Source of the DNA: Alphaproteobacteria bacterium
GTDB taxonomy: Bacteria > Pseudomonadota > Alphaproteobacteria > MPNO01 > UBA830
Assembly (NCBI GenBank): GCA_964291215.2
Contig: OZ219790.1
Span: 1,504,001 to 1,568,000, forward strand
Reading direction: 5' to 3'
Length of the DNA stretch: 64,000 nt
Positions 5,749 through 19,360 of this stretch are shown one piece after another; position 1 is the first letter of the stretch; every line of letters begins with the position of its first letter. The notes under the pieces are model-generated. The model searched no databases, was not told the DNA's origin, and saw nothing but the letters and a program-made list of their open reading frames with translations. Made by a program: the position numbers and the translations under genes.

Positions 5749-6007
5749 ACCGGGGCGGCAAGGTTCAGCGCATCGGTTTCTGCGGATTGCTGCATACCTA
5801 ACCGCGATTCCGGCCACATTTGACCACGGTCCCAAGCTGGTCGGATCGACCGCGGCCCCGCTTCTTTCAATGGTACACTGTAGAATCTATGTTGGCGTAG
5901 TCGCGCATAGCCCGGTAGTTTTCAGTGAACAAGATCAGGTATCCTTCCGTCGCGGTAGGAATGCGCATTACTGCGCACCCCCCGCACAGATCCGGACTTG
6001 GACGCTA

Positions 6008-6822
6008 GGTTGTGTACCCAAATGTTGACATTTTGCATGATCTGCCTTATTCCTGTCGAAAGCGATTCACAAGGAAAATGAGGGATTAGCGGCGACCGAC
6101 ACGACATCAGCGACGCGGAATGGGAAGTTCTCCGCTCAGTGCTTCCTGACAAGCACCAGGGCCCGGAGCGGGTGCATGACCGGAGGGTCATGAACGGGAT
6201 ATTCTTCGTGCTTCGCACCGGTACGCCGTGGCGCGACCTGCGCTACGGTTCGTCTGCTTCAACCGCTTCAACCGGTGGAGCAAGACGGCACCTGGGCATG
6301 GAGAAGCTTCAAAGGCTTACGAGCGATGGTGACGGGAGCGACGATGGCCCGCCGGTTCATCTGCGCATGGTCGACTCCTCGTCGGTGCGCGTTCACAAGC
6401 TGGGGTGTCCCGGGACGACGAGCCTTCGCAAATCGGGCCGTGGCGGACGAACGACGAAGGTCCATCTTGGCGAGAACGAGAGGGTGAAGACCGTGTTCCT
6501 GACCCCGGGCCAAGCGGCCGACTGCGCACAGGCGCTTCTCGCCGACCTCGGGCGAGACGGTGGTCGGCGACAAGACACCGACGCCATCTGATCGAGACGG
6601 CAGGAGCAACCGCGATCATGAAATCCAACCGGACATCGCCCCGGCCGCTTGACCGCGAGATCTACAGGATTCGCAACCTGATCGAGCGGTTCTTCGGTAA
6701 GATCAAGGAGTTCCGACGGGTCGCCACCCGTTATGACAAGGAACTTCCTCTCCGCCGTGCAACTGGCTGCCAGCCGATTCTTGCTCCGCAGAATCGTAAA
6801 CCAATTATTTGAGTCCACAGCC
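6008..6822 (+). mobile_element. IS5-family (IS427-like) insertion sequence, frameshifted
   Basis: IRs GGTTGTGTACCCAAAT / ATTTGAGTCCACAGCC, both ends in CTAG context (TA duplication 6006-6007 and 6823-6824); RHDISDAEWEVL, GIFFVLRTGTPWRDL, MVDSSSVRVH, YRIRNLIERFFGKIKEFRRVATRYDK. Confidence 0.9.
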
Positions 6823-6829
6823 TAGTCCA

Positions 6830-8042
6830 TCCGGCCTCGGGTGCTTGACGGCAAACCGCTGGTCCGGCCATGGGTGACGGATGCACGGCCAAAGAAGTTC
6901 GGTCATGCGCTCCAATCGCTTCCAGTTGAAGCGGTGGCGTTGGGAGCGGCGGCGTATCGCCCGCATCCACCGGCGTTTCAGCCTCTGACGGAACGTGTAC
7001 AGCCAGGGACGGCGAAGTAGTTGAGCCAGCCTTGACAGACTCGCCACTTGCCGACCTCCCATATGTCGTAGTGCCATCGTTTGCGAAGCCCCTCCTCGAT
7101 GCGGGTCCTTGCGACCCGTTTTGCGACCGAGCCTGAACCGTCCTGTCCGGGTCCTCGTGCAGAAGTGCCTGAAACCCAGGAAGTCGAACCCGCGCTTCCG
7201 GCAGTTCGCCATGGCGAACCGGCCGAACTCGACAAGACGAGTCTTGTCCGGGTGAGACCAAAGCGGCCTTTCCCGAACATCGCGAAGGTATTGCTCCGCA
7301 TCCCGCTTGTGCTGAAACCCGACCACGATATCGTCCCGGACAATGATCGCTTGACCGTCCGGAACCTTCGGACGCCTTGTGAAACCACAGATCAAGCACG
7401 TAGTGCAGGAATATGTTCGCAGGGACTGACAATCGCGCCCTGCGGCGTCCCGACACCGGTGTCGCTCCATGGACGCCAGCGTTCAGCCACTTGCGGATCA
7501 GCACCCGCCTGTCGCGGTACTCGAGGAACGTAATCAACCAATCCCCGTGTCGAAGTATGCCCGAATGTCCGCATCAACAATCCAGTTGACCTTGCGCCGT
7601 TCGATCCCGAACGCCAGGGCGTCGAGAGCGCCCCTCGGCCCGAACCCGTAGCCAGGGAACTCCACCTCGTAGATCGGTGTCAGGATCACATCCACAACTG
7701 CCTTCCGGACGATCTTGTCCTCCAGTGCAGCAAGCGGTCGTATCCCGGCTTGGACCCACTGGCGACGCCCGGTACGCTCCCCCGCAGGCGCGAGTGCAAG
7801 TCGAGCAGGCGCTCGTCCAGATCTTCGCCGTCACGCCCCCTGCCGCGGCTTCCTTCTTCAGGCCAACCGGAGTGCATCCGGCGTGGTGGAAGAGCGCACA
7901 CTCCTTCGGGTTCCTCTTTGCAGCTCCGGTCCGCCTTCTGTGGCACCCGACTCTGTGTTCGGCGCGTGCTTTGGCGTCCCGAATTCCCCTTGGTTGAGGC
8001 CCTTTCCTCCTCCGCAGAAGCTTCCTTGTTCGCCGCCTTCAC
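6830..8042 (-). pseudogene. Group II intron reverse transcriptase/maturase (multiple frameshifts, no endonuclease domain)
   Basis: Fragments GTPQGAIVSP, NIFLHYVLDLWF, IIVR[YA missing]DDIVVGF, HPDKTRLVEFGRFA, FDFLGF, GWLNYFAVPG, HPWPDQRFAVKHPR. Confidence 0.88.
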
Positions 8043-10365
8043 AGGGCCCCTTCTTCAAACCGTTCGTCACAGGCTTTCTCCTTCCCTACACGGTCCCGAC
8101 AGGCGGGATAGTTTGAAGATCTCCCAGGGTCCCAACAAAAGGCGTACGGACGGGTTCTTGGACACCGCGGGGCTCATCTCACCATACCGATGTCTGCGAT
8201 GTTGCCTTCGACCACTCTGAAAGCCTCGGCACCCCGAATCATCCCTTTTTCGGTGCTCATTAGCCCCGCTACCGACGCTTCGCCTGCCCCCTCACGGGGA
8301 CCGACGCTCGCGGAGAAACGTGGTTTGGTTACTCCTTCGTTTCAGGGGACTTACACCCCCTACCTTCTGCCAGTTCGCCTGGCGCACCAGAGTTTGTGGG
8401 TGCCCGGCTGGCGCGGGATGAATCCGGCGAGGCGCCCGGTGCTGACGGCGAACTCCGCGATCGCCTGGGCCGCGTTGCCTGCGGTGGTTCGGTATGTGGA
8501 CGGCGAGGACATGGATCTCGTGGACGATCGTGCGCGCCGGCATGCGCTCCGCGCGAGGATGACGGTGCATGCAGTAATGGCAGGCGAGGCACTTCTTCAG
8601 GTCGTCGGCGGCGTTGAGCCCCTTGATCCGCGTTCCGGTCTTGACGGCCGCGAACCACTCTCAGCCAGCGTTTCCAGGCGCGGATCGCGTTCTCCTGCGT
8701 GGGCTCACCTTCGGTGGTCAGGAGCAACCAGCCGGTCCTGTCGGCGGCGTCTTCTCCAGGACGCGCACTGCGAGCATGGTGAGTGGGGCCGTGCCCAGGG
8801 CGGGACAAGGTCGACGACCGCAGCTTGTTGCGCCCCTTGCGCGTCCGGGGGCCGCCATAGGTCGATCGCCTTCTCCGCGACGACATCCAATTCGGCCGCG
8901 AACAGGTCTCTGGCCTTGCCGTCCGCCGTGATGGCCCGCTCGAACGGCTGGCGCGGACCAGGAGCCGCCGGGCGCGGCGGCCTCCGACAGAAGAGACCAC
9001 ATGTCGCCCTTACGGTCGCAGACGGGCGAGTTCGTGGACAGGCCAGCTCGGCGAAGGCGTCCGTCCGCTTTCCTCGCCCGCCGTTGCCTTGTCCTCCGCG
9101 CGGAATCAAGGCTGAATACCCCCGGTGCGCAGCCGCTGAACGCAACGCCGACATGAGCCCCTTGCTTCCGGAGCCGCCGATGTCGACAAGGCCCTGCGTC
9201 GCCTCGCTGCAGTTCAGCATCCCTGAACCGCAACAGACTGGCTGCGGCAACGCATCGCCTCCTGATGCGGCTGTCTTGCATGCCGATCCTCGGGTTCGAC
9301 AGGAACCTGCAAGCCGCTCCGCCTCGCCGGGAAAGATCACCGGCGCACCCGGACGACCGAACCAGACCTCGCCCATCGTGACAAGGCGCTGTGCGCGCTC
9401 CGTCCGTACTCCGCCATCCTCCCTCGACGCGGGCCTGAACCGATCACCCGGCCCGCCCGAGAGACCAGTCCGCCGACAGCGGCTTCACGTACACCCGCAA
9501 CCCCTTGCAGCACGCCGCCGCACGGTAGGCTCCGCACCCACGTAGTTGCACCCACGTAGCTGTACGTCAGGCGAACACCGTAGCGCTCCTCCCGGTCACG
9601 CGACCATGGAACAGCGCCACGGACGCAAGCCCGTGGACGCCGGGAAGAAACCTGTCATTGTTGACAACCCGCCCGATGTTGGCGTCCCGCGCCGCCAGCC
9701 GATGTGGAGGTCCCGCGCCTTGTGATGCCAGGACGCAGCGCCAGGCCGCCGAGGACGCCGTGCAGGGACGAGAGAATCCAGTAGCGGATGCCCGGGACAG
9801 GCCGCGTCGGGATGGTGCGATGCCATCATCGACCGCGCCAGCGACTTGTCCTCGTCGGCAACCGGAACCACGCCAAGATCGCCGAGACGGCACGACAGGT
9901 GTCTGTCGGGATAATCCGGCGACGGGGCCAGGGACTCCGGGGTCACCGAGCCTCCGGCAGACCGAGTGCGGCGGAGAACTTCGGAAGCGCGGCCGAGGCA
10001 TAGTTCTCCCTTCGCGTTCCGCCAGTCCTCACGCTCGCAGAGCTCAGGAAGGTCCGCGTGCAATCCCCGGCGCCAAGCCGTGCCTTCAGCCAGTCAACCG
10101 TCTCGCCACCATGATGTCGCAGGCCGATTCTCATGGAACCGTATATACGGCGTCAGTTGATTCGAGTCAATGGTGATAAGTTGAAAGGCTCCGCTTCTCT
10201 CCCGGTTTTCGGTGGTGTTCCTTCCGTAGTTGCTGGCAGCAGGGGCTGGCCGCCCATCGTCTTTGACGGGTCGGGAGCATGCGGACAGGCGCTGTCGGTT
10301 TCAGCCAAATCAGTGGCACCGCGCGACAGCTGCCGTCCGAGCTGCAGTGGCACCGGCCGAAATTG

Positions 10366-10830
10366 TCACTTTGTCTGTTGGTCTGCTTGTCGTTGTCCGA
10401 GATGAGAGACCTCGATGCCTCCCCATTTGTCGTTCAGATACTCCGCTACCAATCGGCGATGGCAATGATGGGGCTTGTCCTCACTGCACAGCAGGCATCC
10501 ATCCGCAACGACTTCCTCGGGAACGGTGCTTTCGATCCGGCGCTGGCGCATGAGCTCAAGAAAGCGGGCCTCATAGGTCTCCCAGTTACTGCCGCCCTTC
10601 CTATACTCGTCCAGAATTTCCTTCGTGGGCGCAAGCTCAGGCAGGTGAACGTACTCCATTCCGCAGATCTTGGCGAGGAAAAATGCGAGGTCGTCACGCT
10701 TTGCAAAACCTGAAAGTTGCGACATGTTGTTGAGCCGAACGTCCACCACGCGCCGCGCGCCGGACGCACGCAGCAGACCAAAGAACCGGTCCGCCGACTT
10801 CCTAGTAAAGCCGATAGTATAGATCTTCAC
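10366..10830 (-). CDS. DUF488-family protein (short form)
   Basis: IYTIGFT.KSA..FF.LL, VVDVRLNN.SQLSGFAK.DDL, CLLCSEDKPHHCHRRLVAEYL. Confidence 0.9.
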   Translation of the reverse strand: MKIYTIGFTRKSADRFFGLLRASGARRVVDVRLNNMSQLSGFAKRDDLAFFLAKICGMEYVHLPELAPTKEILDEYRKGGSNWETYEARFLELMRQRRIESTVPEEVVADGCLLCSEDKPHHCHRRLVAEYLNDKWGGIEVSHLGQRQADQQTK

Positions 10831-11450
10831 GAAGCTGGCCCAACGGCCTCGACGGCCGGCTTATCGTCCACGTACGCAACTCGTTCAGACTGCTGCGCGA
10901 TGGCTGTGGCGATCCGCTCCGCCCGCGTAGCATAGAGATCCTCGCGATGGAGCCGATGCAAGTCGAGCAGGCGGTCCATGGCCTCGTCGTGCGTTTCCAT
11001 TCGACCGTCCGCGTGAATATGCACGACATTGACGCCCTGCTCGTGCAGAGCCGGAGATACCAGGAGCGTCCGGTGGCAGTCGAGTGGCTCCTTCTCCGCG
11101 CAGATCAGTGCGATTCGGTATTTGACGGCACCGCGAACGACGCGGGCCAGCCCGCTCCTGAACGATTCCGTTGTAGCGATACGGTCGTAGCAGACCTGTC
11201 CATCCTCGTAGCAGGCGGGGTCTTCGGACCGGCCTCCGAGCAAATTCCCGAGATACACGTACCGGATCCCTTCCATGCTCAGGGCTTCCGCAAATGTTTC
11301 ACGGTTGAACTGAGGATTGAATCGGCTATAGGGCTTGGAGCGGACATCGGCTACGGCAGTTACGCCGTGCATCTGCAACAGTACAACAAATGCCTTCAGC
11401 GTATGTGTCGAATGACCAATGGTGAACACGCTGTCGCAGACTGCGTTCAT
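10827..11450 (-). CDS. DUF488-family protein (long form)
   Basis: VFTIGHSTH, VADVRSKPYSRFNPQFNRE, YVYLG..LGGR, ALICAEKEPLDCHR; stop overlaps next start (ATGA). Confidence 0.92.
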   Translation of the reverse strand: MNAVCDSVFTIGHSTHTLKAFVVLLQMHGVTAVADVRSKPYSRFNPQFNRETFAEALSMEGIRYVYLGNLLGGRSEDPACYEDGQVCYDRIATTESFRSGLARVVRGAVKYRIALICAEKEPLDCHRTLLVSPALHEQGVNVVHIHADGRMETHDEAMDRLLDLHRLHREDLYATRAERIATAIAQQSERVAYVDDKPAVEAVGPAS

Positions 11451-11455
11451 TGGAC

Positions 11456-12142
11456 CTACCTGCGTTGTTCCTCAATGACTGAGGCGATGAGTTTGTAGAC
11501 GGCGCCACTGTAGGGTTCCGCGAGGCTGACGGTGAGAAAGCACTCGCCAACGGAGTAGGTTCCGTCCAGCTTTGCTAGATATTGCCGCTCGTATGTAGGA
11601 TCAGTGATCCACAGGCCGTATTCGATTCCCTCGTGATTGAAGCGCCCTTGGACACGCCGCTTCGTGTTTCCAAATGCTTCAGTAGGTTTAAATACCCAGA
11701 TTTGAAGATTGTCGACATGAACCAGCTTCAGAGAGCCCTCGACCGAATCTGCAATTTCCTCCGGAATCCTGTCGTTTTGCCCATTGTATGTGCTATAGCC
11801 ATCAAGCCATAGAGGACTTGGGGGATCCACGAACTTCGGCAAGTCAGACCACGACATCCTGCCTACCTTCTCCCAGTAGCACTCGGGATCGATCAGCCAG
11901 TTCTCGGCCTGGCAGCCCCGTGGACGCGGCCCCACCATCGGAATGTCGATCACATCAAGGACTCGCGGGTCGCTACCGTCCTCGTATTGACGCTCGTACT
12001 CCGATACCTCCTCATGCTCGCGATCGCTGACCGGTCGGATCCAGGGGCCAGCTTGGCCGTCGTTCCACTCCCGGCCGGCGACACACCGGCCGCGCAGTTT
12101 CCGGGAATTCGCGAGACAGACGATGCGCTTCAGGTTCTGCAT
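11456..12142 (-). CDS. Dual-OB-domain protein
   Basis: IVCLANSRK..GRCVAG, WIRPVS, QAENWLI, Y.L.ITDP, FLTVSLAEPY...YKLIASVI; 228 aa. Confidence 0.8.
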   Translation of the reverse strand: MQNLKRIVCLANSRKLRGRCVAGREWNDGQAGPWIRPVSDREHEEVSEYERQYEDGSDPRVLDVIDIPMVGPRPRGCQAENWLIDPECYWEKVGRMSWSDLPKFVDPPSPLWLDGYSTYNGQNDRIPEEIADSVEGSLKLVHVDNLQIWVFKPTEAFGNTKRRVQGRFNHEGIEYGLWITDPTYERQYLAKLDGTYSVGECFLTVSLAEPYSGAVYKLIASVIEEQRR

Positions 12143-12158
12143 CGAGTTCGCCGCCTCT

Positions 12159-13406
12159 TCATGTTGCAGTAAGCGCCTTCGCCGCCGGCATCACAAGCAG
12201 CAATTCGGTCTCATCGATCATGGTGTACTCGGGAAGGCGACCGGAAAGCTTCTCGCATTCGTCCCTGATAATAGGCACTCCGTCCCCGCGACGGTCCATC
12301 AGGCGCGAGCGTCCGATATTCGCTGGGGCCTGGCACTGCGCCAACAGGGACACAATAAGTTCATTCCTGCTGGACTGCCGGAGATGCATCGAGTCCGGGG
12401 CAAGCGTATTGGGCAGCGCCCCAGGGACATAGAGTTCGATGCGATCACCGAACATGTGCAATCGCACGCGCGCGCCTGCCAACGAGTAATCCCGGTGTGC
12501 GACCGCGTTCACCAGCGCTTCGAATGCAGCTCTCTCGCTGAACTGCGGTTGTTCGGTCCGCGCGGTTGATTTTGTCGCACGGACAAGCATGTTCCGTTGC
12601 ACGAAATGCAACACTTCCGTGACCTGTTCGTCGAGCGGCCCGCCAATGTCGCGCGTGTCCGTCTGATAATCGATGTCGGTGCGCTCCCCCGTGTAGCTGA
12701 CTGCCTGTATGTACGCATGTGGGAGCCATCTTTGAGGTTCGCGCGTGCACAAGAGAACCCCAGCCAGCGTAAGCCGCGAAACGCCTTGACCATCATCTGC
12801 AACCACGCGAAGCTTGCGTGCTAGCTCCTCGTCGACGCCTTCATCCACCAGCCCTTGCCGCAGGAAACGACGCGTCAGCGCGTAATCCAGATCGCTTGGT
12901 CTCGTACCGGGTACCACTGACTCATCGAAACGGATGATCCGGCTCTGGCTTCGTTGCTCAAACAGGCGCGCCAGAATTCCCGGAGCCATTTCACGCTTCG
13001 AACTACCCAAGCGACGAAAGTAGCCGCCAGGGCTTCGATGCACGAAGAGACTGCGTGAAATTTCGATGCAAATGACGGGAACATCCCTGTCGGACGTATC
13101 TGGCAAGCTCAGCTTGCAAATGTGAGCATCCAGCGCTGGCTCGACGGAATCGTTGCAGATCTCGCGAACCCAGCCTTCCACTGCGTCGAGGCTGTCGAGC
13201 GGTATGCCCATCACCGTTCGCGTCTTATCATCCACCCCAAGAACTACCGTGCCGCCCTTTGCGTTGGCGAAGGCTGCCAGCTCATCCGCGAAATCGTCTC
13301 GGCTCGGCGCCGCCACGCGACCTCCGGCCATCTCGATTCTCTTGAGTTCCAAGACCGAGTCCTCGCCGAGCCGAATACGCTTGACCAAGTCTTCAAACTG
13401 GTTCAC
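12159..13406 (-). CDS. AlbA_2/Schlafen N-terminal domain plus HATPase_c_4 ('RecG C-terminal'-like) protein
   Basis: GEDSVLELK, AFANAKGGTVVLGVDD, EALVNAVAHRDYS, DRIE...PGALP, RNELI, MDRRGDGV; GTG start; no C-terminal HTH seen. Confidence 0.9.
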   Translation of the reverse strand: MNQFEDLVKRIRLGEDSVLELKRIEMAGGRVAAPSRDDFADELAAFANAKGGTVVLGVDDKTRTVMGIPLDSLDAVEGWVREICNDSVEPALDAHICKLSLPDTSDRDVPVICIEISRSLFVHRSPGGYFRRLGSSKREMAPGILARLFEQRSQSRIIRFDESVVPGTRPSDLDYALTRRFLRQGLVDEGVDEELARKLRVVADDGQGVSRLTLAGVLLCTREPQRWLPHAYIQAVSYTGERTDIDYQTDTRDIGGPLDEQVTEVLHFVQRNMLVRATKSTARTEQPQFSERAAFEALVNAVAHRDYSLAGARVRLHMFGDRIELYVPGALPNTLAPDSMHLRQSSRNELIVSLLAQCQAPANIGRSRLMDRRGDGVPIIRDECEKLSGRLPEYTMIDETELLLVMPAAKALTAT

Positions 13407-13716
13407 GTTCGTGGTCTTTCGTCCAAGATTTTATGCGCCCGCTTTCGGCGTGCGACCATCCGCGAAGTTGCTACAACCTTATACCACAAGGTAGTTGAGA
13501 GTGCCGGCCGTCGCTTGTCCTTTCGGGGGCAGAACAGAGACCGCAGCCTCCTTCAGAAAATCCAAAAACGGCAGTTGCCTCGGGCATCGTAGGCAAAGAG
13601 GTTCCATGACCAAGTTGCCGACCGCATTGCCGATCCGTCCACGACAAGCACACCAGTTTGGAAGAAATTGGCAAAAGCGGATACATGAACAACCCCTCAT
13701 TCTCTTTTCTGGCGCC

Positions 13717-13732
13717 GTATCTACTCGCCCCT
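13717..13732. repeat. Solo IS66-type terminal repeat
   Basis: GTATCTACTCGCCCCT differs at one position from the IS66 end GTATCTACTCACCCCT at 27823. Confidence 0.55.
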
Positions 13733-14013
13733 ACTGATCACGAATCGTTTTTCCTGACGACGTTCGGATCAGGCATCTTCTCTTGCCACCTTCACTCGCT
13801 CGCTGCCGATGACCTATGCGGGCTCCGATTGGCAGGAACCGATCCGGTCTTCAGCCTCAGAGCTCCCTTTGCGGCCCGTAGGGACGGATCTGAAACGCGA
13901 TCTGCCAACCCCCGCGCCGACATCGCGTGTCGATCGTGCTGGCCGGTGGTGCATGTTCCGTTGGCTGCCTTTCCATTCCGCCGGAAATTTCCGTTTGACA
14001 CTATAGGAGGAAC

Positions 14014-14029
14014 GTATCTGCTCACCCCT
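14014..14029. repeat. Solo IS66-type terminal repeat abutting IS256
   Basis: GTATCTGCTCACCCCT matches the ends of the IS66 copies at 24457-25988 and 27823-29313. Confidence 0.6.
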
Positions 14030-14030
14030 C

Positions 14031-15075
14031 GATTACGCAACCTGATGTCTGGAAATTGTCGTGAAGCTGATCGAGCTGTTCCCATTTGATCTTGGTTTCG
14101 GTTTCCCATTTTTCGTCGATGAGGACTGCGGTTGAGAGGCGCTCCAACGAGGCGAGGTTCGGAAAGACCCTGACTTTGGAGGTGCGCCGCTTGAGTTCTT
14201 GCTGGATCGGTCGCTCGATGCCGTTCGAGGTTCACATACGTTTGCGGTGAGCATCGGGCAAGGTGAAGACATCGAGCCCCGCATTGTTTTCCAGCCAGGA
14301 AACCTGGACGCTTGTCGCGATAGCTGGCCACGAGGGCGCCCGGTTCAGCCTCGGCGGTTTGGAGTGAGGACGCATGGCTCCGAGCTGTTTTCCGATACGT
14401 TTCCTGATGTCGTTGTTCGGTGCACGGCGTTTTGTGCCAGGTGGAATTGGCAGCGCTGGCACCGCGCCGCTTTCAGCCCGGCATCCGAGACGATGAAGGT
14501 CGTACCATGCAGGCCACGGGCTTGCAAGCTTTCCAGGAAGGCCCTCCAATGGACCTCGGCCTCGGAGAGCGCCACAGAGAGCCCCGGAACGCGCCTGCAG
14601 CCCCTGTTCCGATGGCCGAGAGCACTGCAACATCGCGCACAACGCCGTCATGGCGGGCTTTTCCATAACGCGCATCCAGGTATTTCATCAGGGGCCGGTT
14701 GCGCGGCGAGTTCTTCGTCGAGCAACCTGGTGGCCCCCTGAGAAGAGGACAGGCTCCCGAACTCGCGCATTACATCCTGCCGTGTGGAAACACCCTTGAT
14801 GTACATCTCGGCTACGGCGCGAGAAGATCGCTGGCCGCGTTCAAGCGACTGGGGGGTCGTCCCCGTGACCGGCCGTCTTTGGCACCTGAACGGCAACAGC
14901 GGGGGTGTCGATCCGCTTGTAGCCGTTGGCATAGCCCTGTCGCTCCGGTGTCCGGTGGCCCGCTTTCAAGTACTGCTCGCGCTCGATTTGCATCGCAAGC
15001 TCGAAGAGCTGGCCAAAGACCCGCCCCGGATCCGTTGCTCCGTTTGCCACGGCGATCCCACGCCAGGTTTGTTGG
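14031..15075 (-). mobile_element. IS256-family transposase, degraded (left end probably displaced to about 19230-19257)
   Basis: Fragments LFELAMQIERE..L.A, GYANGYK, AEMYIKGVSTR, YLDARY.K.R.DGVVRD.AVL.AIG, SEAEVHWRAFLESLQARGL, QRCQFHLAQNA; end GATTACGCAACC at 14031. Confidence 0.85.
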
Positions 15076-16338
15076 AAGGGTCGGTTTCGCTTGTTCAGGA
15101 TGATTCGTATTTTCGCTGGCTTTTTGTGAAGCGGCGTAGTATCCGTTGTCGTGGGGGCAGCGGATTTTTTTGAGACGACTCCGGAGGGTTTTGAGCTCCG
15201 GGATGTGGTTGTGCGCCTTGCGCGGCCTGATGTCGCTGGAATCGTGTCGTTGACCGTATCTTGGTTTCAAGCAGTTTGCCGGTCGAGGTCTGCGCTACGT
15301 GTTCACCTGGCGCGGGCGGTGGATTGGTGCTGCGGGCTGGCAGACGGGCGCCCTCAGCTGCGCACCCGTTGGCTGGCGCCGCGAGGAACAGTTCAGGCGG
15401 TTGCCGGGAACAACACGAGGTTTGTTGTTTTTGGTGGTCGTTTCCGGGCCTTGCCTCGTTTGCGTTGTCGCGGATGGTGCGGCGGCGACCGGGAGGCTGC
15501 GTACGGCCATCCGTTGCTTGTTGCGGAGAAGTTTGTCTTGCCGACGAAGTTCAGCGGCACCATGTACAAGGCGGCGAACCGGGAGTGCGTTGGCGGGAGC
15601 CATGAGCGCGCCAGCGGGCGCCGACCGGGGAGGCGAAGGATCCTTACGTGTTTCCGCTGCGTTGTGACGCGGGATCGTTCGCCGCTTCCTGCGGCGTGGG
15701 AGTTGCGGGCGCCGCTGGTCGCGCAGGAGTTGCGCTCGATTTATCAGCGGCGCTTTCCGGCGCGGGGCACCGCATCGCCTCGGCACTGCGCGTGATGGCG
15801 CGGCTTGCGAACCGGCGCGGCGGCGCACTACGACGCAGAAGGAGCTGGAGCAGCGTGGAAGAACAGGGACAAGCCGGCCTCCACCGTGCACCGGGTGCTG
15901 CAGAACACCGACCCGGGATGGATCGAGGATGCGGCGCGCAGCCGCAGGTCGGCAACGCGGTCGACGGCAAGCGCGGCCGCACCGGCGAGGATCATTACGA
16001 GACGGTCTCGCTGGCCGGTATTCGATCCTCAACTGTCACGGCGGGGAGATCGCTGCCGTCCACGCCGCGCCGGCCGTCTGCTCACCCTCGATGCGCTCCA
16101 CACCACCCGCGAGGCTGACCATCGAGACCCATCGCGCGGACTGATGGTCAAGGGCAACGCACCTTCGAGAGAGCATCAACTGGAAGACCGCCAGCGCTAC
16201 AACGAAAAGCCCGCGCATGGCCGCCAGCGCACCATCTTCACCCCGCTGGCGAAGATGATCAACTATGTCAGGCAGATCTTCCGCGTCACCCGGCGCGTCG
16301 AATTCAGGAAATCCGGAAAACGCCATGACCTTATATGA

Positions 16339-17532
16339 CCCCCGTTCCATAGTGAAGTGCAACACATGATGGGCTGTGGCCATGTGTTTTTAGACGCATG
16401 ATGTTGCGGAGCTGTCCAGCAGCGGCGAAAGTTCCTGTACAAGATGGAGGGAGCTTGTTCATGTCCAAAGGCTACCGTCACCTACGAAGAGCGATGCCAG
16501 ATTGAGGCAGAAAAGCGGTCTTTCACAAGGTGCGATTGCTCGGCAGCTGGGCCGATCAACAATTTTCCGGGAGATCAAGCGCAACACCGGGGGACGGGGT
16601 TACCGTCACAAGCAGGCGCAAAGGATGGCAGAAACGCAGGGCCGCCTCGTCTGTTTCTTGGCGGTTGACGCCTCGGGCTGAAGCTCAGAAAAAGCTGCGG
16701 GAGGGCCCCGAGCAGATCAGCGGCCGTTTTCGACTGGAAGGCCGTGGGTCGGCAACGGATCCATGATCGCCGAAGATCGGAGAGCCGGGGGCGTCCTGTG
16801 GAAGAAGCTTCGGCGGCGCGGCAAGAAGCCGAACTGGAAGGGCGGATGCCATTCCGGCCGGGTGGACATTTCCGAGCGCCCTGCGGAGGCAAAGGAACGG
16901 ATCGGCGACTGGGAGCCATCATCGGCAAAGCTCACAGTGGAGCTGTCGTGTCGCTCGTGCCACGAAATACACCTTGCTGGGTGGACAGAAAGACACGGTC
17001 GGTATGAGCCGCCTGCTCGGCTCTGGTGCGCTATTGGTCCACACAATCACAACGGCAAGGAGTTCGCAGACCACAGGCGTGTCGCACTTGACGCAGACTT
17101 CTTCTTCGCCTTTCCATTCTTGGGAGCGCGGCTTGAATGAGCACACCAACGGCCTGGTGCGGGAGTACTTCCCGAAGGGCACGGACTTTCGCGCGACATG
17201 CAACGAAGATGTTCAGAAGGTGCGGCTCAACATTCGGAAAGTCCTGGGATCACCGACGGAGGTAATCTTGAAGTGAAACCGCCCTGACCATCTGCGCCAT
17301 GTTCCGAAGCCGCAACGTGCAGCAGGGTCCATGCCGCGCGACGGCGAAATAGTGGCTTGAAGCCGACAAAGGCGTTGCATAAGCTTGATGTTGAAGGAAC
17401 TGAAGCTGTTCCTAGGCGGAATCGAGAGGGGCAGAGGGGAAAAATTTGCGCAACACCCGGCCCTCATCTCCGTTCGGGCTACGCCCTCACTGCGATGAGG
17501 GCCGGGTGTTGCACTTCAGACTGGAAGTAAGG
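16339..17532 (+). mobile_element. IS30-family insertion sequence, frameshifted
   Basis: 27-bp imperfect IRs CCCCCGTTCCATAGTGAAGTGCAACAC / GTGTTGCACTTCAGACTGGAAGTAAGG; 3-bp TSD TGA (16336-16338, 17533-17535); TYEERCQIE, ISERPAEA..RIGDWE, NGKEFA, PFHSWERGLNEHTNGLVREYFPKGTDF. Confidence 0.92.
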
Positions 17533-17629
17533 TGACTAGGTTTTATCCCCTTGATGATGAAATCATCCACAGCAGTTGGGGGCGGGAAAATGTGGACAAC
17601 CCCGACTGTGGGAGAGCGTCCGGTCCATG

Positions 17630-17796
17630 GTTGCAGAGAGATTCCGCTCCCCTGAGCGAACACGCACAGGGGAGCAAACGATCTCCGCGGAGGTTGCCGT
17701 TTCGACCTTGACAGGGCCGTGTCCGAGTGTGGTCGGCCAACCTCCCTTGACGTCCCTCGCTGGATGCTTGAACCCGTATCATCACAAGGCGAGGAG
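17630..17796 (+). ncRNA. IS110 bridge RNA (5' stem-loop, target-binding loop, donor-binding loop)
   Basis: 5' hairpin GCTCCCCTG/CAGGGGAGC; target-loop stem GGAGGTTG (17689-17696)/CAACCTCC (17738-17745) enclosing TTTCGACCT and CCGAG; donor-loop stem CCTCGC/GCGAGG enclosing TGGATGCT and ACAAG; lies directly upstream of the recombinase ATG (17799). Confidence 0.8.
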
Positions 17797-17798
17797 CA

Positions 17799-18445
17799 AT
17801 GGTCAAGGTAGTAGCAGGAGTCAGCCAGTCTGGACATCTGGCGCATTGTTTTGCGAACGACGCCACGGGCTGGCGGGCAGGTGGCCTCGGGGTGAGCCGG
17901 GTGGTGGGCGACAGGCCGCTATCACCGCAAGGTTCACCAGTGTCTTCATGACCGGGGCTTCGAGGTTGTTCTCGTCAACCCGTTGCGGGCGCTTCGCCGA
18001 GGCGCCAACCGCGTCGACGCCAGGATCGGCACGGTGAGCCTGTGGCTCCTCAAGAGCCTAGAGGATCTCCTGGTGGCGCGCTTGTCGACGCCAGGCAGGT
18101 GAGGTGGATGACGAGACCGTCACAAGGGCCTCGGCGGCCGATCTCGATGATCGCCGGTGATCCCGAGCAGAGGTACGCCATCCTGACCTCGATCCGGTGA
18201 CCGCCGCGGCCCTTCCGGATGCCCGAACTCGGCAGCCTTGATCGGGGTGGCGCCGATGGCCACGGTGCCCGGCACATCCGTGGCGGGCAGGCCACGAGAT
18301 CTCCTGGCCGCAAGCTTCAACGCGGACCTGGTGCGCCTCAAGACCGCCGGCAAGCAAGGTCGCGATTGTCGCCGTGATGCGCAAGCTCTGGCGAACACCT
18401 TGCTGCGACAGCAGCGTTGCTTGTCGACCGAAGCACCGGTGAGTG
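17799..18445 (+). pseudogene. IS110 DEDD recombinase/transposase, heavily deleted (end approximate)
   Basis: RBS GAGGAG, MVKVVAGV..S, VVLVNP..RRFAEA, LIGVAPMA, FN......L..AGK, AVMRKL spread across frames. Confidence 0.75.
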
Positions 18446-18637
18446 AGCGAAGGAGACACGGCCCTGCCGAGAGCGCGACCGGGACTGTATCGACAGTCTC
18501 CCTACTACGACACGACTTGGGGAGAATGTCTGCAGATCATCGTCGAGGCCGACATCGAGGAGATCGAACCGCCTTGGGACACCTGGAACCCGGACGGTCA
18601 CGTGCCCGGGGACGGCAAGGTAGCCGCGTTCACGTGA
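18443..18637 (+). CDS. Small hypothetical passenger ORF in the IS110 right end
   Basis: 64-aa acidic/aromatic ORF (SPYYDTTWGECLQIIVEADIEEIEPPWDTWNPDG) between recombinase and right end; no recognised family. Confidence 0.35.
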   Translation: MSEGDTALPRARPGLYRQSPYYDTTWGECLQIIVEADIEEIEPPWDTWNPDGHVPGDGKVAAFT

Positions 18638-19360
18638 CCAATGGACGGCAACCCGCCGCCGGGACCACAAGCTTCATGCCGCCTCGCTCGCAGAGCAAAT
18701 CCCACACCGCTTGTGGACAACCACAGAAAACATCACCACAGACACCCGCAAAAACCTTGCCAGGAAACATGGATGCTCGGTCGAGCGCGCCTCGCCGCAA
18801 CAGTTGCTCGCATGGGATCGCGGACACTGGGTAGTCGAGAGCCATCATCATGTCCGCGACGCCACCTTCCGCGAAGACGACTCCATGCTCCGAACGCGCC
18901 CGCAAACAACGCGATCACCCTCGCAATCATCATCCACAACAAGCGCAGGCTGCGCAAACCCTTCAACAGCTTCCCACCATGCCGACAAGCGCAAGCAGGT
19001 CCTGCACGCAATCACAAGACCAGGCTGACCGCGCCTCTCTCCCCGACAGAAACCGCAAGCTTTCGAGCCCGGCAACCAAGGCCTCTCGCTCGCCCCGGAT
19101 ACGCCGACCAATCGCGCCCCGCGCCGCAACAGCGCGTCAGCAATCTCAAAATCGCAGCCTCGAACGCGTCGACCCGCGCCGCGATCAGGACTCCGATCAC
19201 GTCACATCAACAAGCATGGGATCACCTTGGTCCTGTCCGCGGGTCCGTTGCGTCTCCCCGGCACAGGAGATACGCTTTCCGGGAACGTTTCCGCCCGGGC
19301 CGCGAAGCGGACGGCGGGGACGGACGCCTGGCCGCGAAACGCGCCCGTGAGAGGAGCAGC

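Follow-up and report, generated by a model that had tools for sequence, protein, structure and literature searches.

In a window of 64,000 nucleotides from an alphaproteobacterial genome (assembly GCA_964291215.2, contig OZ219790.1, positions 1,504,001 to 1,568,000), four intact and co-oriented genes make up a 3-kb block that is single-copy in the 6.15-Mb genome. On the minus strand they run from a Schlatpase gene through a dual-OB gene to two DUF488 genes, M45B and M45C (Table 1). We identified the last three, hereafter the trio, as the PADLOC candidate system PDC-M45, adjacent, co-oriented and in the order A-B-C. A sequence-only reading of the window had already placed four intact, co-oriented genes here and named their Pfam domains, both of which we confirm. 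Its junction lengths were also right, with a 16-bp gap between genes 1 and 2, a 5-bp gap between genes 2 and 3 and a 4-bp overlap between genes 3 and 4; because gene 4 starts at GTG, however, the overlap reads GTGA and not ATGA. The ratios of non-synonymous to synonymous substitution rates (dN/dS), calculated against the nearest relatives and 16-17 disjoint pairs, are 0.146 for the Schlatpase, 0.17 for the dual-OB protein, 0.236 for M45B and 0.135 for M45C. All four genes are thus kept under purifying selection, as had been proposed.

Table 1. Positions of the four genes and of the flanking features in the window.
Feature	Position	Strand	Basis
Schlatpase (gene 1), stand-alone, 415 aa, GTG start	12159..13406	-	Pfam, PADLOC, conserved residues
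PDC-M45A, dual-OB protein (gene 2), 228 aa, predicted tandem OB folds	11456..12142	-	Pfam, PADLOC, model
PDC-M45B, DUF488 protein (gene 3), 207 aa, C-terminal helical extension	10827..11450	-	Pfam, PADLOC, model
PDC-M45C, DUF488 protein (gene 4), 154 aa, GTG start	10366..10830	-	Pfam, PADLOC, hhalign, B-C fusions
Upstream non-coding stretch common to closest relatives	13407..13544	-	blastn homology
Downstream flank, decayed multi-copy mobile-element fragments incl. IS5-family pieces; context only	5900..10300	.	copy number, Pfam
Upstream flank, decayed multi-copy mobile-element fragments incl. Mutator-family, HTH_38 pieces; context only	13600..19300	.	copy number, Pfam

Families, folds and catalytic residues

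The assignment of the trio was made with PADLOC hidden Markov models (HMMs) and adjacency rather than with PADLOC's own system rule. Gene 2 matches PDC-M45A (E 8e-99, positions 1-227 of 230), gene 3 PDC-M45B (E 9e-87, positions 4-197 of 204) and gene 4 PDC-M45C (E 9e-75, positions 1-144 of 145), while NCBIfam gave no family for any of the four proteins. The composition had been called uncharacterised, which is not borne out: genes 2-4 are a named candidate, and gene 1 is a Schlatpase, a type that received its name recently. The sequence-only reading had itself noted that a match to an already named system would remove novelty, and through PADLOC this applies to genes 2-4.

The dual-OB protein belongs to Pfam DuOB (PF22557, E 5e-75) and carries a conserved CLANSRK..GRC.AG motif. 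Its model is nearly all beta strand, with a predicted local distance difference test score (pLDDT) of 92. The best fold matches are OB proteins (CST, HIN-200, RPA and telomere-end proteins), and they are weak: Foldseek E is 1e-3, and the best VIA match has Z 7.3 and a root-mean-square deviation (rmsd) of 3.3 over 85 aligned residues, with the weak matches mostly covering residues 1-97. HIN-200 domains rank near the top of the Foldseek list, at E 2e-3 to 1e-2. From the modelled fold, the protein is likely a binder of single-stranded DNA (ssDNA). A sequence search of the PDB returned nothing for the dual-OB protein or M45C.

Both DUF488 proteins pass PF04343 (82.7 and 90.1 bits against a cut-off of 22.2), and M45C also matches PF22751. 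M45B carries the motifs TIGHS..DVR..C117-x-E-x5-C125-H-R (CAEKEPLDCHR) and M45C carries TIGFT..DVR..C115-x-E-x5-C123-H-R-R (CSEDKPHHCHR); the C-x-E-x5-C-H-R signature, which had been spotted in both proteins, is invariant in 109/109 and 91/91 distinct relatives of M45B and M45C, respectively. The two are paralogues with 28% identity by profile (hhalign 98.6%), M45C consisting of a core of about 145 aa and a 9-residue tail, whereas the consensus of its relatives stops at about 145 aa. The M45B model (pLDDT 92) gives weak matches to dual-specificity phosphatases (DSPs) and tetrapyrrole methylases: the best Foldseek E is 6e-3, and VIA Z-scores range from 8.5 to 9.1, with the laforin DSP at Z 8.6 (rmsd 3.6, 133 aligned) and tetrapyrrole methylases at Z 9.1. 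The first cysteine of M45B closes a strand, as in DSPs; the classical C-x5-R P-loop of protein tyrosine phosphatases and DSPs, however, is absent, and C-x9-R is found instead (C117..R127; C115..R125). The OB and Cys-phosphatase-like folds that had been named from the sequence are tentatively supported by Foldseek and VIA, through weak matches. Burroughs and Aravind reportedly placed DUF488 in a rhodanese-phosphatase fold in 2023 and predicted DNA-end processing in conflict systems; their work is said to cover a RapZ-C/DUF488/DUF4326 clade and may already list neighbourhoods like that of the four genes. The weak matches of our models agree with such a placement.

Fused forms of these proteins were sought among the 8000 best candidates of each search. 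Among the longer M45C relatives listed, 107/120 are B-C fusions, 104 of them with both motifs. The longer dual-OB relatives include six dual-OB-B fusions (6/79), and their commonest form carries RecQ-type domains (62/79, counted from the Pfam column). An operon of the type DUF488-DUF488-[dual-OB/RecQ] lies at L241:6237-10605 (G706:C7), its dual-OB/RecQ part split into two open reading frames. The B-C, dual-OB-B and RecQ fusions therefore argue for the trio as a coherent unit, likely acting on unwound DNA. With its helicase, the RecQ-dual-OB operon represents a variant form of PDC-M45. Small enterobacterial and Acinetobacter plasmids hold a shorter dual-OB - DUF488 - DUF4326 cassette (L185:132-1795, L186:4998-6686), in which the proteins beside dual-OB, DUF488 and DUF4326, are distinct members of one predicted phosphatase clade. 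DUF4326, which is related to DUF488, has been described as acting on terminal phosphates (Iyer et al. 2022). Two candidate Schlatpase-dual-OB fusions (P0121 and P0142) were set aside as likely frameshifts, given their truncated Schlatpase, off-frame-looking linker and occurrence on one contig each.

Gene 1 encodes PF04326 (SLFN_AlbA_2) followed by PF13749 (HATPase_c_4, GHKL), both above cut-off. It matches the PADLOC model for prokaryotic Argonaute (pAgo) only at positions 57-435 of 1121, and with 415 aa it has no fused PAZ-MID-PIWI core, which belongs to SLFN-pAgo proteins of 1071-1187 aa; the Argonaute part is absent, and a search for a C-terminal HTH in the protein gave no match. Across the protein and its orthologues the nuclease motif E15-x4-E20-x-K22 is well kept (E15 in 55/55, E20 in 52/55, K22 in 55/55), as is D41 (55/55), whose role as third acid is our own assignment. 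The SAFAN-type box reads AAFAN, with A45, A47 and N48 kept in 55/55. In the GHKL domain, E296 and N300 of the E-x3-N motif are kept in 55/55 and are accompanied by HRDY and G374/G376; we equate them with E314/N318 of RzAgo by spacing and domain position, not by direct alignment. The PDB sequence search returned only weak matches for gene 1, to Schlafen 8 and 3LMM. Gene 1 is hence predicted to be a Schlafen RNase with a GHKL ATPase, intact in its catalytic residues and a putative tRNA cutter. At two loci elsewhere (L216 and L217, in G685 and G684), a Schlatpase with a decayed motif (D-D-S-P-L-E-V-M) stands in frame directly before an intact M45C.

Recurrence and inheritance

The sample comprised 57 metagenome loci, the top 80 among 324 genome hits, a single viral contig and the hits in relatives, and it is biased towards close relatives. 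After the prior removal of five duplicate or self loci, 140 non-duplicate dual-OB loci were available; 98 could be evaluated and 42 were dropped for short flanks. Intactness was counted with trimmed queries, and the dN/dS values, the distance comparison and a neighbour scan of 33 loci rest on smaller sets than the 98-locus counts. An orthologous Schlatpase (about 60-90% identical) lies directly upstream of dual-OB in 64/98 loci, intact in 56 and broken in eight. All four genes are intact in 42/98 loci from seven named phyla. The Schlatpase is absent from 34/98 loci, and the intact trio occurs without any Schlatpase match in 31/98; conversely, 14 of the 56 loci with an intact Schlatpase have a missing or broken partner.

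A reverse search that started from the Schlatpase in whole genomes, with the window and the five seed loci excluded, gave 34/47 copies at 60% identity or more with M45 genes at most 1.5 kb downstream; the other 13 have none there. Of the copies below 60% identity, 0/27 have M45 genes in that range. The expectation that the AlbA_2 gene would recur with the other three is therefore borne out by the neighbourhood survey, in both directions of search.

In a tree of 94 dual-OB proteins (quick maximum likelihood, midpoint root, no bootstrap), a single branch of 76 rows (SH-aLRT 99) contains all 63 Schlatpase carriers, and none of the 18 rows outside it carries a Schlatpase. Remnants of the gene are detectable in two loci. 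The tree and the gene order fit one gain, horizontal spread and several losses. Eight solo Schlatpases keep their motif and have a dN/dS of 0.10, and dual-OB was found in only 4/17 genomes whose Schlatpase has no adjacent dual-OB. Five loci keep only the Schlatpase and M45C side by side, M45C having a dN/dS of 0.10; two of these pair a degenerate nuclease motif with an intact M45C, and two of the five have a further DUF488 gene about 4 kb upstream.

Dual-OB occurs in only 5/41 genomes (the host and 40 relatives). A search with dual-OB gave no match among the 50,697 records of the phage collection and one match in IMG/VR. Many of the carrier lineages are probable sponge symbionts, and one record title names Poriferihabitaceae.

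Defence neighbourhoods, flanks and host genome

The recurrent large neighbours of dual-OB loci are HmaA, HmaB and HmaC. Hma genes lie within 10 kb in 18/98 loci; they do so in ten of the 18 loci outside the Schlatpase branch and in six of the 64 carriers. Dual-OB directly follows HmaB in eight loci. Gene-by-gene maps of 14 selected loci show cassette stacks in and around the HmaB-HmaC interval that differ between loci, made of PDC-M38, HEC-01, Ppl, Dsr1-like, PDC-S06, PDC-S54, PDC-S35, MNT-HEPN and CBASS genes in varying order and accompanied by all four genes, the trio, parts of the trio or the Schlatpase alone. Hotspot loci of this kind (L231-L238, L084, L101, L117, L118) are mostly from Latescibacterota, and an unassigned DUF6615 gene often stands directly upstream of the Schlatpase in the hotspot. 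On plasmids the trio adjoins CBASS and type III CRISPR genes (5/23 hits opened). One four-gene cassette has a DarG macrodomain gene and a DUF1156 methylase no more than 10 kb away (L122:19610-20671). Hits to mad3 near four-gene loci were discounted as defence genes, as they cover only about 100 residues, and six Acidobacteriota-type loci that have Sir2 and Fpg genes nearby were taken to share an insertion site, those genes not being counted as partners.

In the window, the block has a GC content of 58.3% against 64.1% for the genome, which ranks it within the bottom 1.8% of 2023 windows of its size, and the GC at third codon positions of its genes is 0.66-0.69 compared with 0.88 for a nearby molybdo-oxidoreductase gene. 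The suspicion of a lower GC than the core genes was thus correct, and horizontal acquisition, likewise suggested from the sequence, agrees with GC, mobile-element flanks and the dual-OB tree. The multi-copy flanks at 5.8-10.3 kb and 13.6-19.3 kb contain frameshifts and stops relative to other genome copies; the statement that every neighbouring insertion sequence is decayed holds for the pieces that were compared with such copies. Pfam labels in the flanks are restricted to IS5-family, Mutator-family and one HTH_38 piece. About 10 kb of the flanks consists of nested, deletion-riddled fragments with tens to more than 100 partial copies genome-wide, and a piece at about 6.9-8.0 kb resembles a reverse-transcriptase remnant by eye, which Pfam did not confirm.

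Upstream of gene 1, blastn homology extends to 13523-13544 in loci L058, L001 and L002. The non-coding stretch probably holds the promoter and forms the upstream boundary of the mobile block, although a sigma-70 promoter scan of it found 0 sites with 1.2 expected. Contigs from three public runs, all of a single study, also carry the cassette, at flat and low depth. Among the rows listed, these contigs have no indels within the cassette and one substitution, the conservative K139R in dual-OB. None of the public runs listed is an RNA run carrying the cassette.

The host genome has six AlbA_2 genes, and its only DUF488 genes are the two in the cassette. This copy is not surrounded by the helicase, DUF1156 methylase and DUF499 ATPase that mark Hma or type-1 BREX-related loci; the nearest DUF499 lies about 105 kb away, at 29% identity. 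The host has a helicase-DUF1156-DUF499 system of its own at L242:1874-17787 (G000:C1:831.9-847.8 kb), followed by a gene for an ABC-ATPase and by another, different Schlatpase with 26% identity, with a TrwC relaxase adjoining. That locus is probably a mobile defence island, where a Schlatpase would have been recruited a second time.

Two modules or one system, and comparison with known systems

Each half of the block persists without the other, and we are therefore likely dealing with two stacked defence modules and not with one new machine. For the same reason, the earlier proposal that the four genes form one integrated system appears weak: each half is kept under selection in the absence of its partner. 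We favour a composite anti-phage cassette (at a probability of roughly 0.55), in which PDC-M45 would act on ssDNA or DNA ends next to an independent Schlafen tRNase, the two having been joined once, likely in the Hma slot. The link to defence had also been drawn by the sequence-only reading, and it stands on the PADLOC match to PDC-M45 and on the Hma-embedded relatives.

Judging from folds and fusions, the dual-OB protein would hold ssDNA laid bare by helicase action or during phage replication, while the first cysteine of the DUF488 B-C pair could serve as nucleophile on phosphorylated or blocked DNA ends. The action of B-C might disturb phage DNA metabolism or clear the ends left by restriction-type attack. 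By analogy with RzAgo, ATP binding would oligomerise the GHKL domain and rebuild the Schlafen tRNase, making the Schlatpase an abortive back-up that cuts tRNA and shuts the cell down on some cue. The tree and the gene order suggest a single event, likely in the HmaB-HmaC slot, that put the modules side by side; thereafter the pair would have spread to at least seven phyla as a single transcription unit, with either half lost occasionally.

Several observations weigh against this reading. The halves mostly stay together (34/47 by the reverse search), the nearest neighbour of the Schlatpase is also that of the trio in 25/38 loci, and such frequent co-retention fits real cooperation as well as it fits linkage. 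The solo Schlatpases come mostly from one Latescibacterota lineage with one shared site and so may stem from a single loss, and the genomes that hold them may be incomplete. Among 33 Hma-free four-gene loci, a clear PADLOC hit lies within two called genes in 4/33, or in 6/33 when SoFic and dGTPase are counted, both figures being without a control. With Foldseek E-values no better than 1e-3 and Z-scores no higher than 9.1, the fold matches are weak, and they point to no substrate. In PMC13056530, Slfn-HisKinase genes alone gave E. coli no protection. On balance, the data favour two modules able to work apart, and their long co-inheritance leaves room for cooperation.

Alternatively, the four genes could be one coupled system, in which the trio senses phage DNA ends or ssDNA and switches on the Schlatpase, whose tRNA cleavage aborts the infection. 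We consider this doubtful, and we are no less hesitant about its more specific form, in which the trio fills the role of the Argonaute core in SLFN-pAgo, dual-OB senses DNA much like HIN-200 in mammals, and detection of phage DNA ends sets off an ATP-driven assembly of the Schlatpase. Coupling would account for the dedicated Schlatpase clade, with M45 genes directly downstream in 34/47 at 60% identity or more against 0/27 below it, and for one origin followed by long co-inheritance, as seen in the tree and the shared nearest neighbour (25/38). It would also suit a Schlatpase that has no sensor domain and belongs to a type of protein that did not defend E. coli alone, the HIN-200 rows among the top Foldseek matches of dual-OB, and the five loci that keep Schlatpase and M45C side by side with a dN/dS of 0.10 for M45C. 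Yet solo Schlatpases are conserved, several of them in genomes where dual-OB was not found, and the trio occurs without a Schlatpase in 34/98 loci, including all 18 rows outside the branch. Moreover, the nuclease motif is degenerate beside an intact M45C in 2/5 of the Schlatpase-M45C loci, and just two Schlatpase-dual-OB fusions were seen, both with a truncated Schlatpase and a linker that looks off-frame. If the coupled system were real, it would provide the first activator for the largest prokaryotic Schlafen class and the first function for DUF488.

The block may also serve a purpose other than phage defence. As a DNA repair or stress cassette, the trio would heal blocked or phosphorylated DNA ends together with RecQ-type helicases, and the Schlatpase would be a stress-triggered translation brake. 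RecQ fusions do predominate among the long dual-OB relatives, DUF488 gives weak matches to a Cys-phosphatase-like fold, 27-29 of the 33 Hma-free four-gene loci lack any known defence gene as a neighbour, and dual-OB is found in 0 of the 50,697 phage records and once in IMG/VR. We nevertheless find such a role unlikely: the patchy distribution (5/41), repeated decay, Hma embedding and CBASS/CRISPR adjacency are typical of conflict systems and not of housekeeping repair, and the characterized prokaryotic Schlafens, in the parts of the sources covered, are phage-triggered. A toxin-antitoxin or addiction module, with the Schlatpase as a constitutive toxin restrained by the DUF488 pair or dual-OB, would be in keeping with an intact island amid a decayed neighbourhood, an operon structure and an intact nuclease motif. 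This is highly improbable, because in 14/56 loci the Schlatpase is intact although a partner is absent or broken, which argues against a toxin-antitoxin pair, solo copies are under purifying selection and the trio is widespread with no toxin gene upstream.

Both halves of the favoured composite cassette are of interest in themselves, PDC-M45 as a catalogued candidate and the stand-alone Schlatpases as the commonest prokaryotic Schlafen form. The 3-kb block and its natural deletion series (trio only, Schlatpase only, Schlatpase with M45C) provide a convenient test kit, and the RecQ and B-C fusions direct DUF488 assays to DNA ends and to a two-subunit enzyme. If the halves are independent, the block would neatly illustrate how defence cassettes meet in a hotspot and then spread jointly, a useful though not a surprising case. 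The literature searched yielded no enzyme assay of DUF488, and it does not contradict the earlier statement that no experimentally characterized system has this composition. Nor did we find a description of the four-gene block there; supplements outside the search, or the 2023 work of Burroughs and Aravind, could hold one.

Among known systems, PDC-M45 is the closest to the trio. PDCs are defined by their embedding in BREX, DISARM or type I restriction-modification (RM) systems (Payne et al., bioRxiv 10.1101/2024.01.29.577857). Genes 2-4 match M45A, B and C nearly end to end and in the same order, and the trio of relatives is embedded in Hma, as PDCs embed in defence loci; this copy differs in its extra Schlatpase gene upstream and in having no Hma, BREX or RM around it. 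An experimental test or phage phenotype of PDC-M45 was not found in the literature searched, the supplementary tables of Payne et al. lying outside that search.

Gene 1 compares with the Schlatpase supradomain of the SLFN-pAgo RzAgo, which forms an ATP-driven tetramer and cleaves tRNA; the same preprint reports that Schlatpases swap between pAgo, type I RM and a stand-alone form, and that 58.6% of 103,533 SLFN proteins have a GHKL domain (Kuzmenko et al., bioRxiv 10.64898/2026.05.29.728809). The two share PF04326 and PF13749, the E-x4-(D/E)-x-K motif, a SAFAN-type box and the GHKL E-x3-N. Gene 1, however, is without the Argonaute core and guide sensing, and the oligomer and tRNA cleavage are shown only for RzAgo. 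Its architecture and catalytic motif are those of pSlfn-HisKinase, the most common prokaryotic Schlafen architecture at 34% (PMC13056530, Nat Microbiol 2026). Of the seven Schlafen genes with four architectures tried in that study, only DUF262 and Ig-like fusions protected E. coli, and therefore the HisKinase type did not defend alone; a link to dual-OB or DUF488 appears neither in the passages covered nor in the 11 of 26 supplementary files searched. Finally, the main text of PMC12839542 counts Schlafen-HisKinase-wHTH RNases among the common back-up effectors of BREX and DUF499 loci, with at least 1017 taxa having them; 'DUF488' is absent from that main text, the supplement being outside the search. 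While the cassette of the window has no adjacent Hma gene, relatives of both of its modules stand between HmaB and HmaC, among other cassettes in the Hma or type-1 BREX-related (DUF499) systems that this source treats (PMC12839542).

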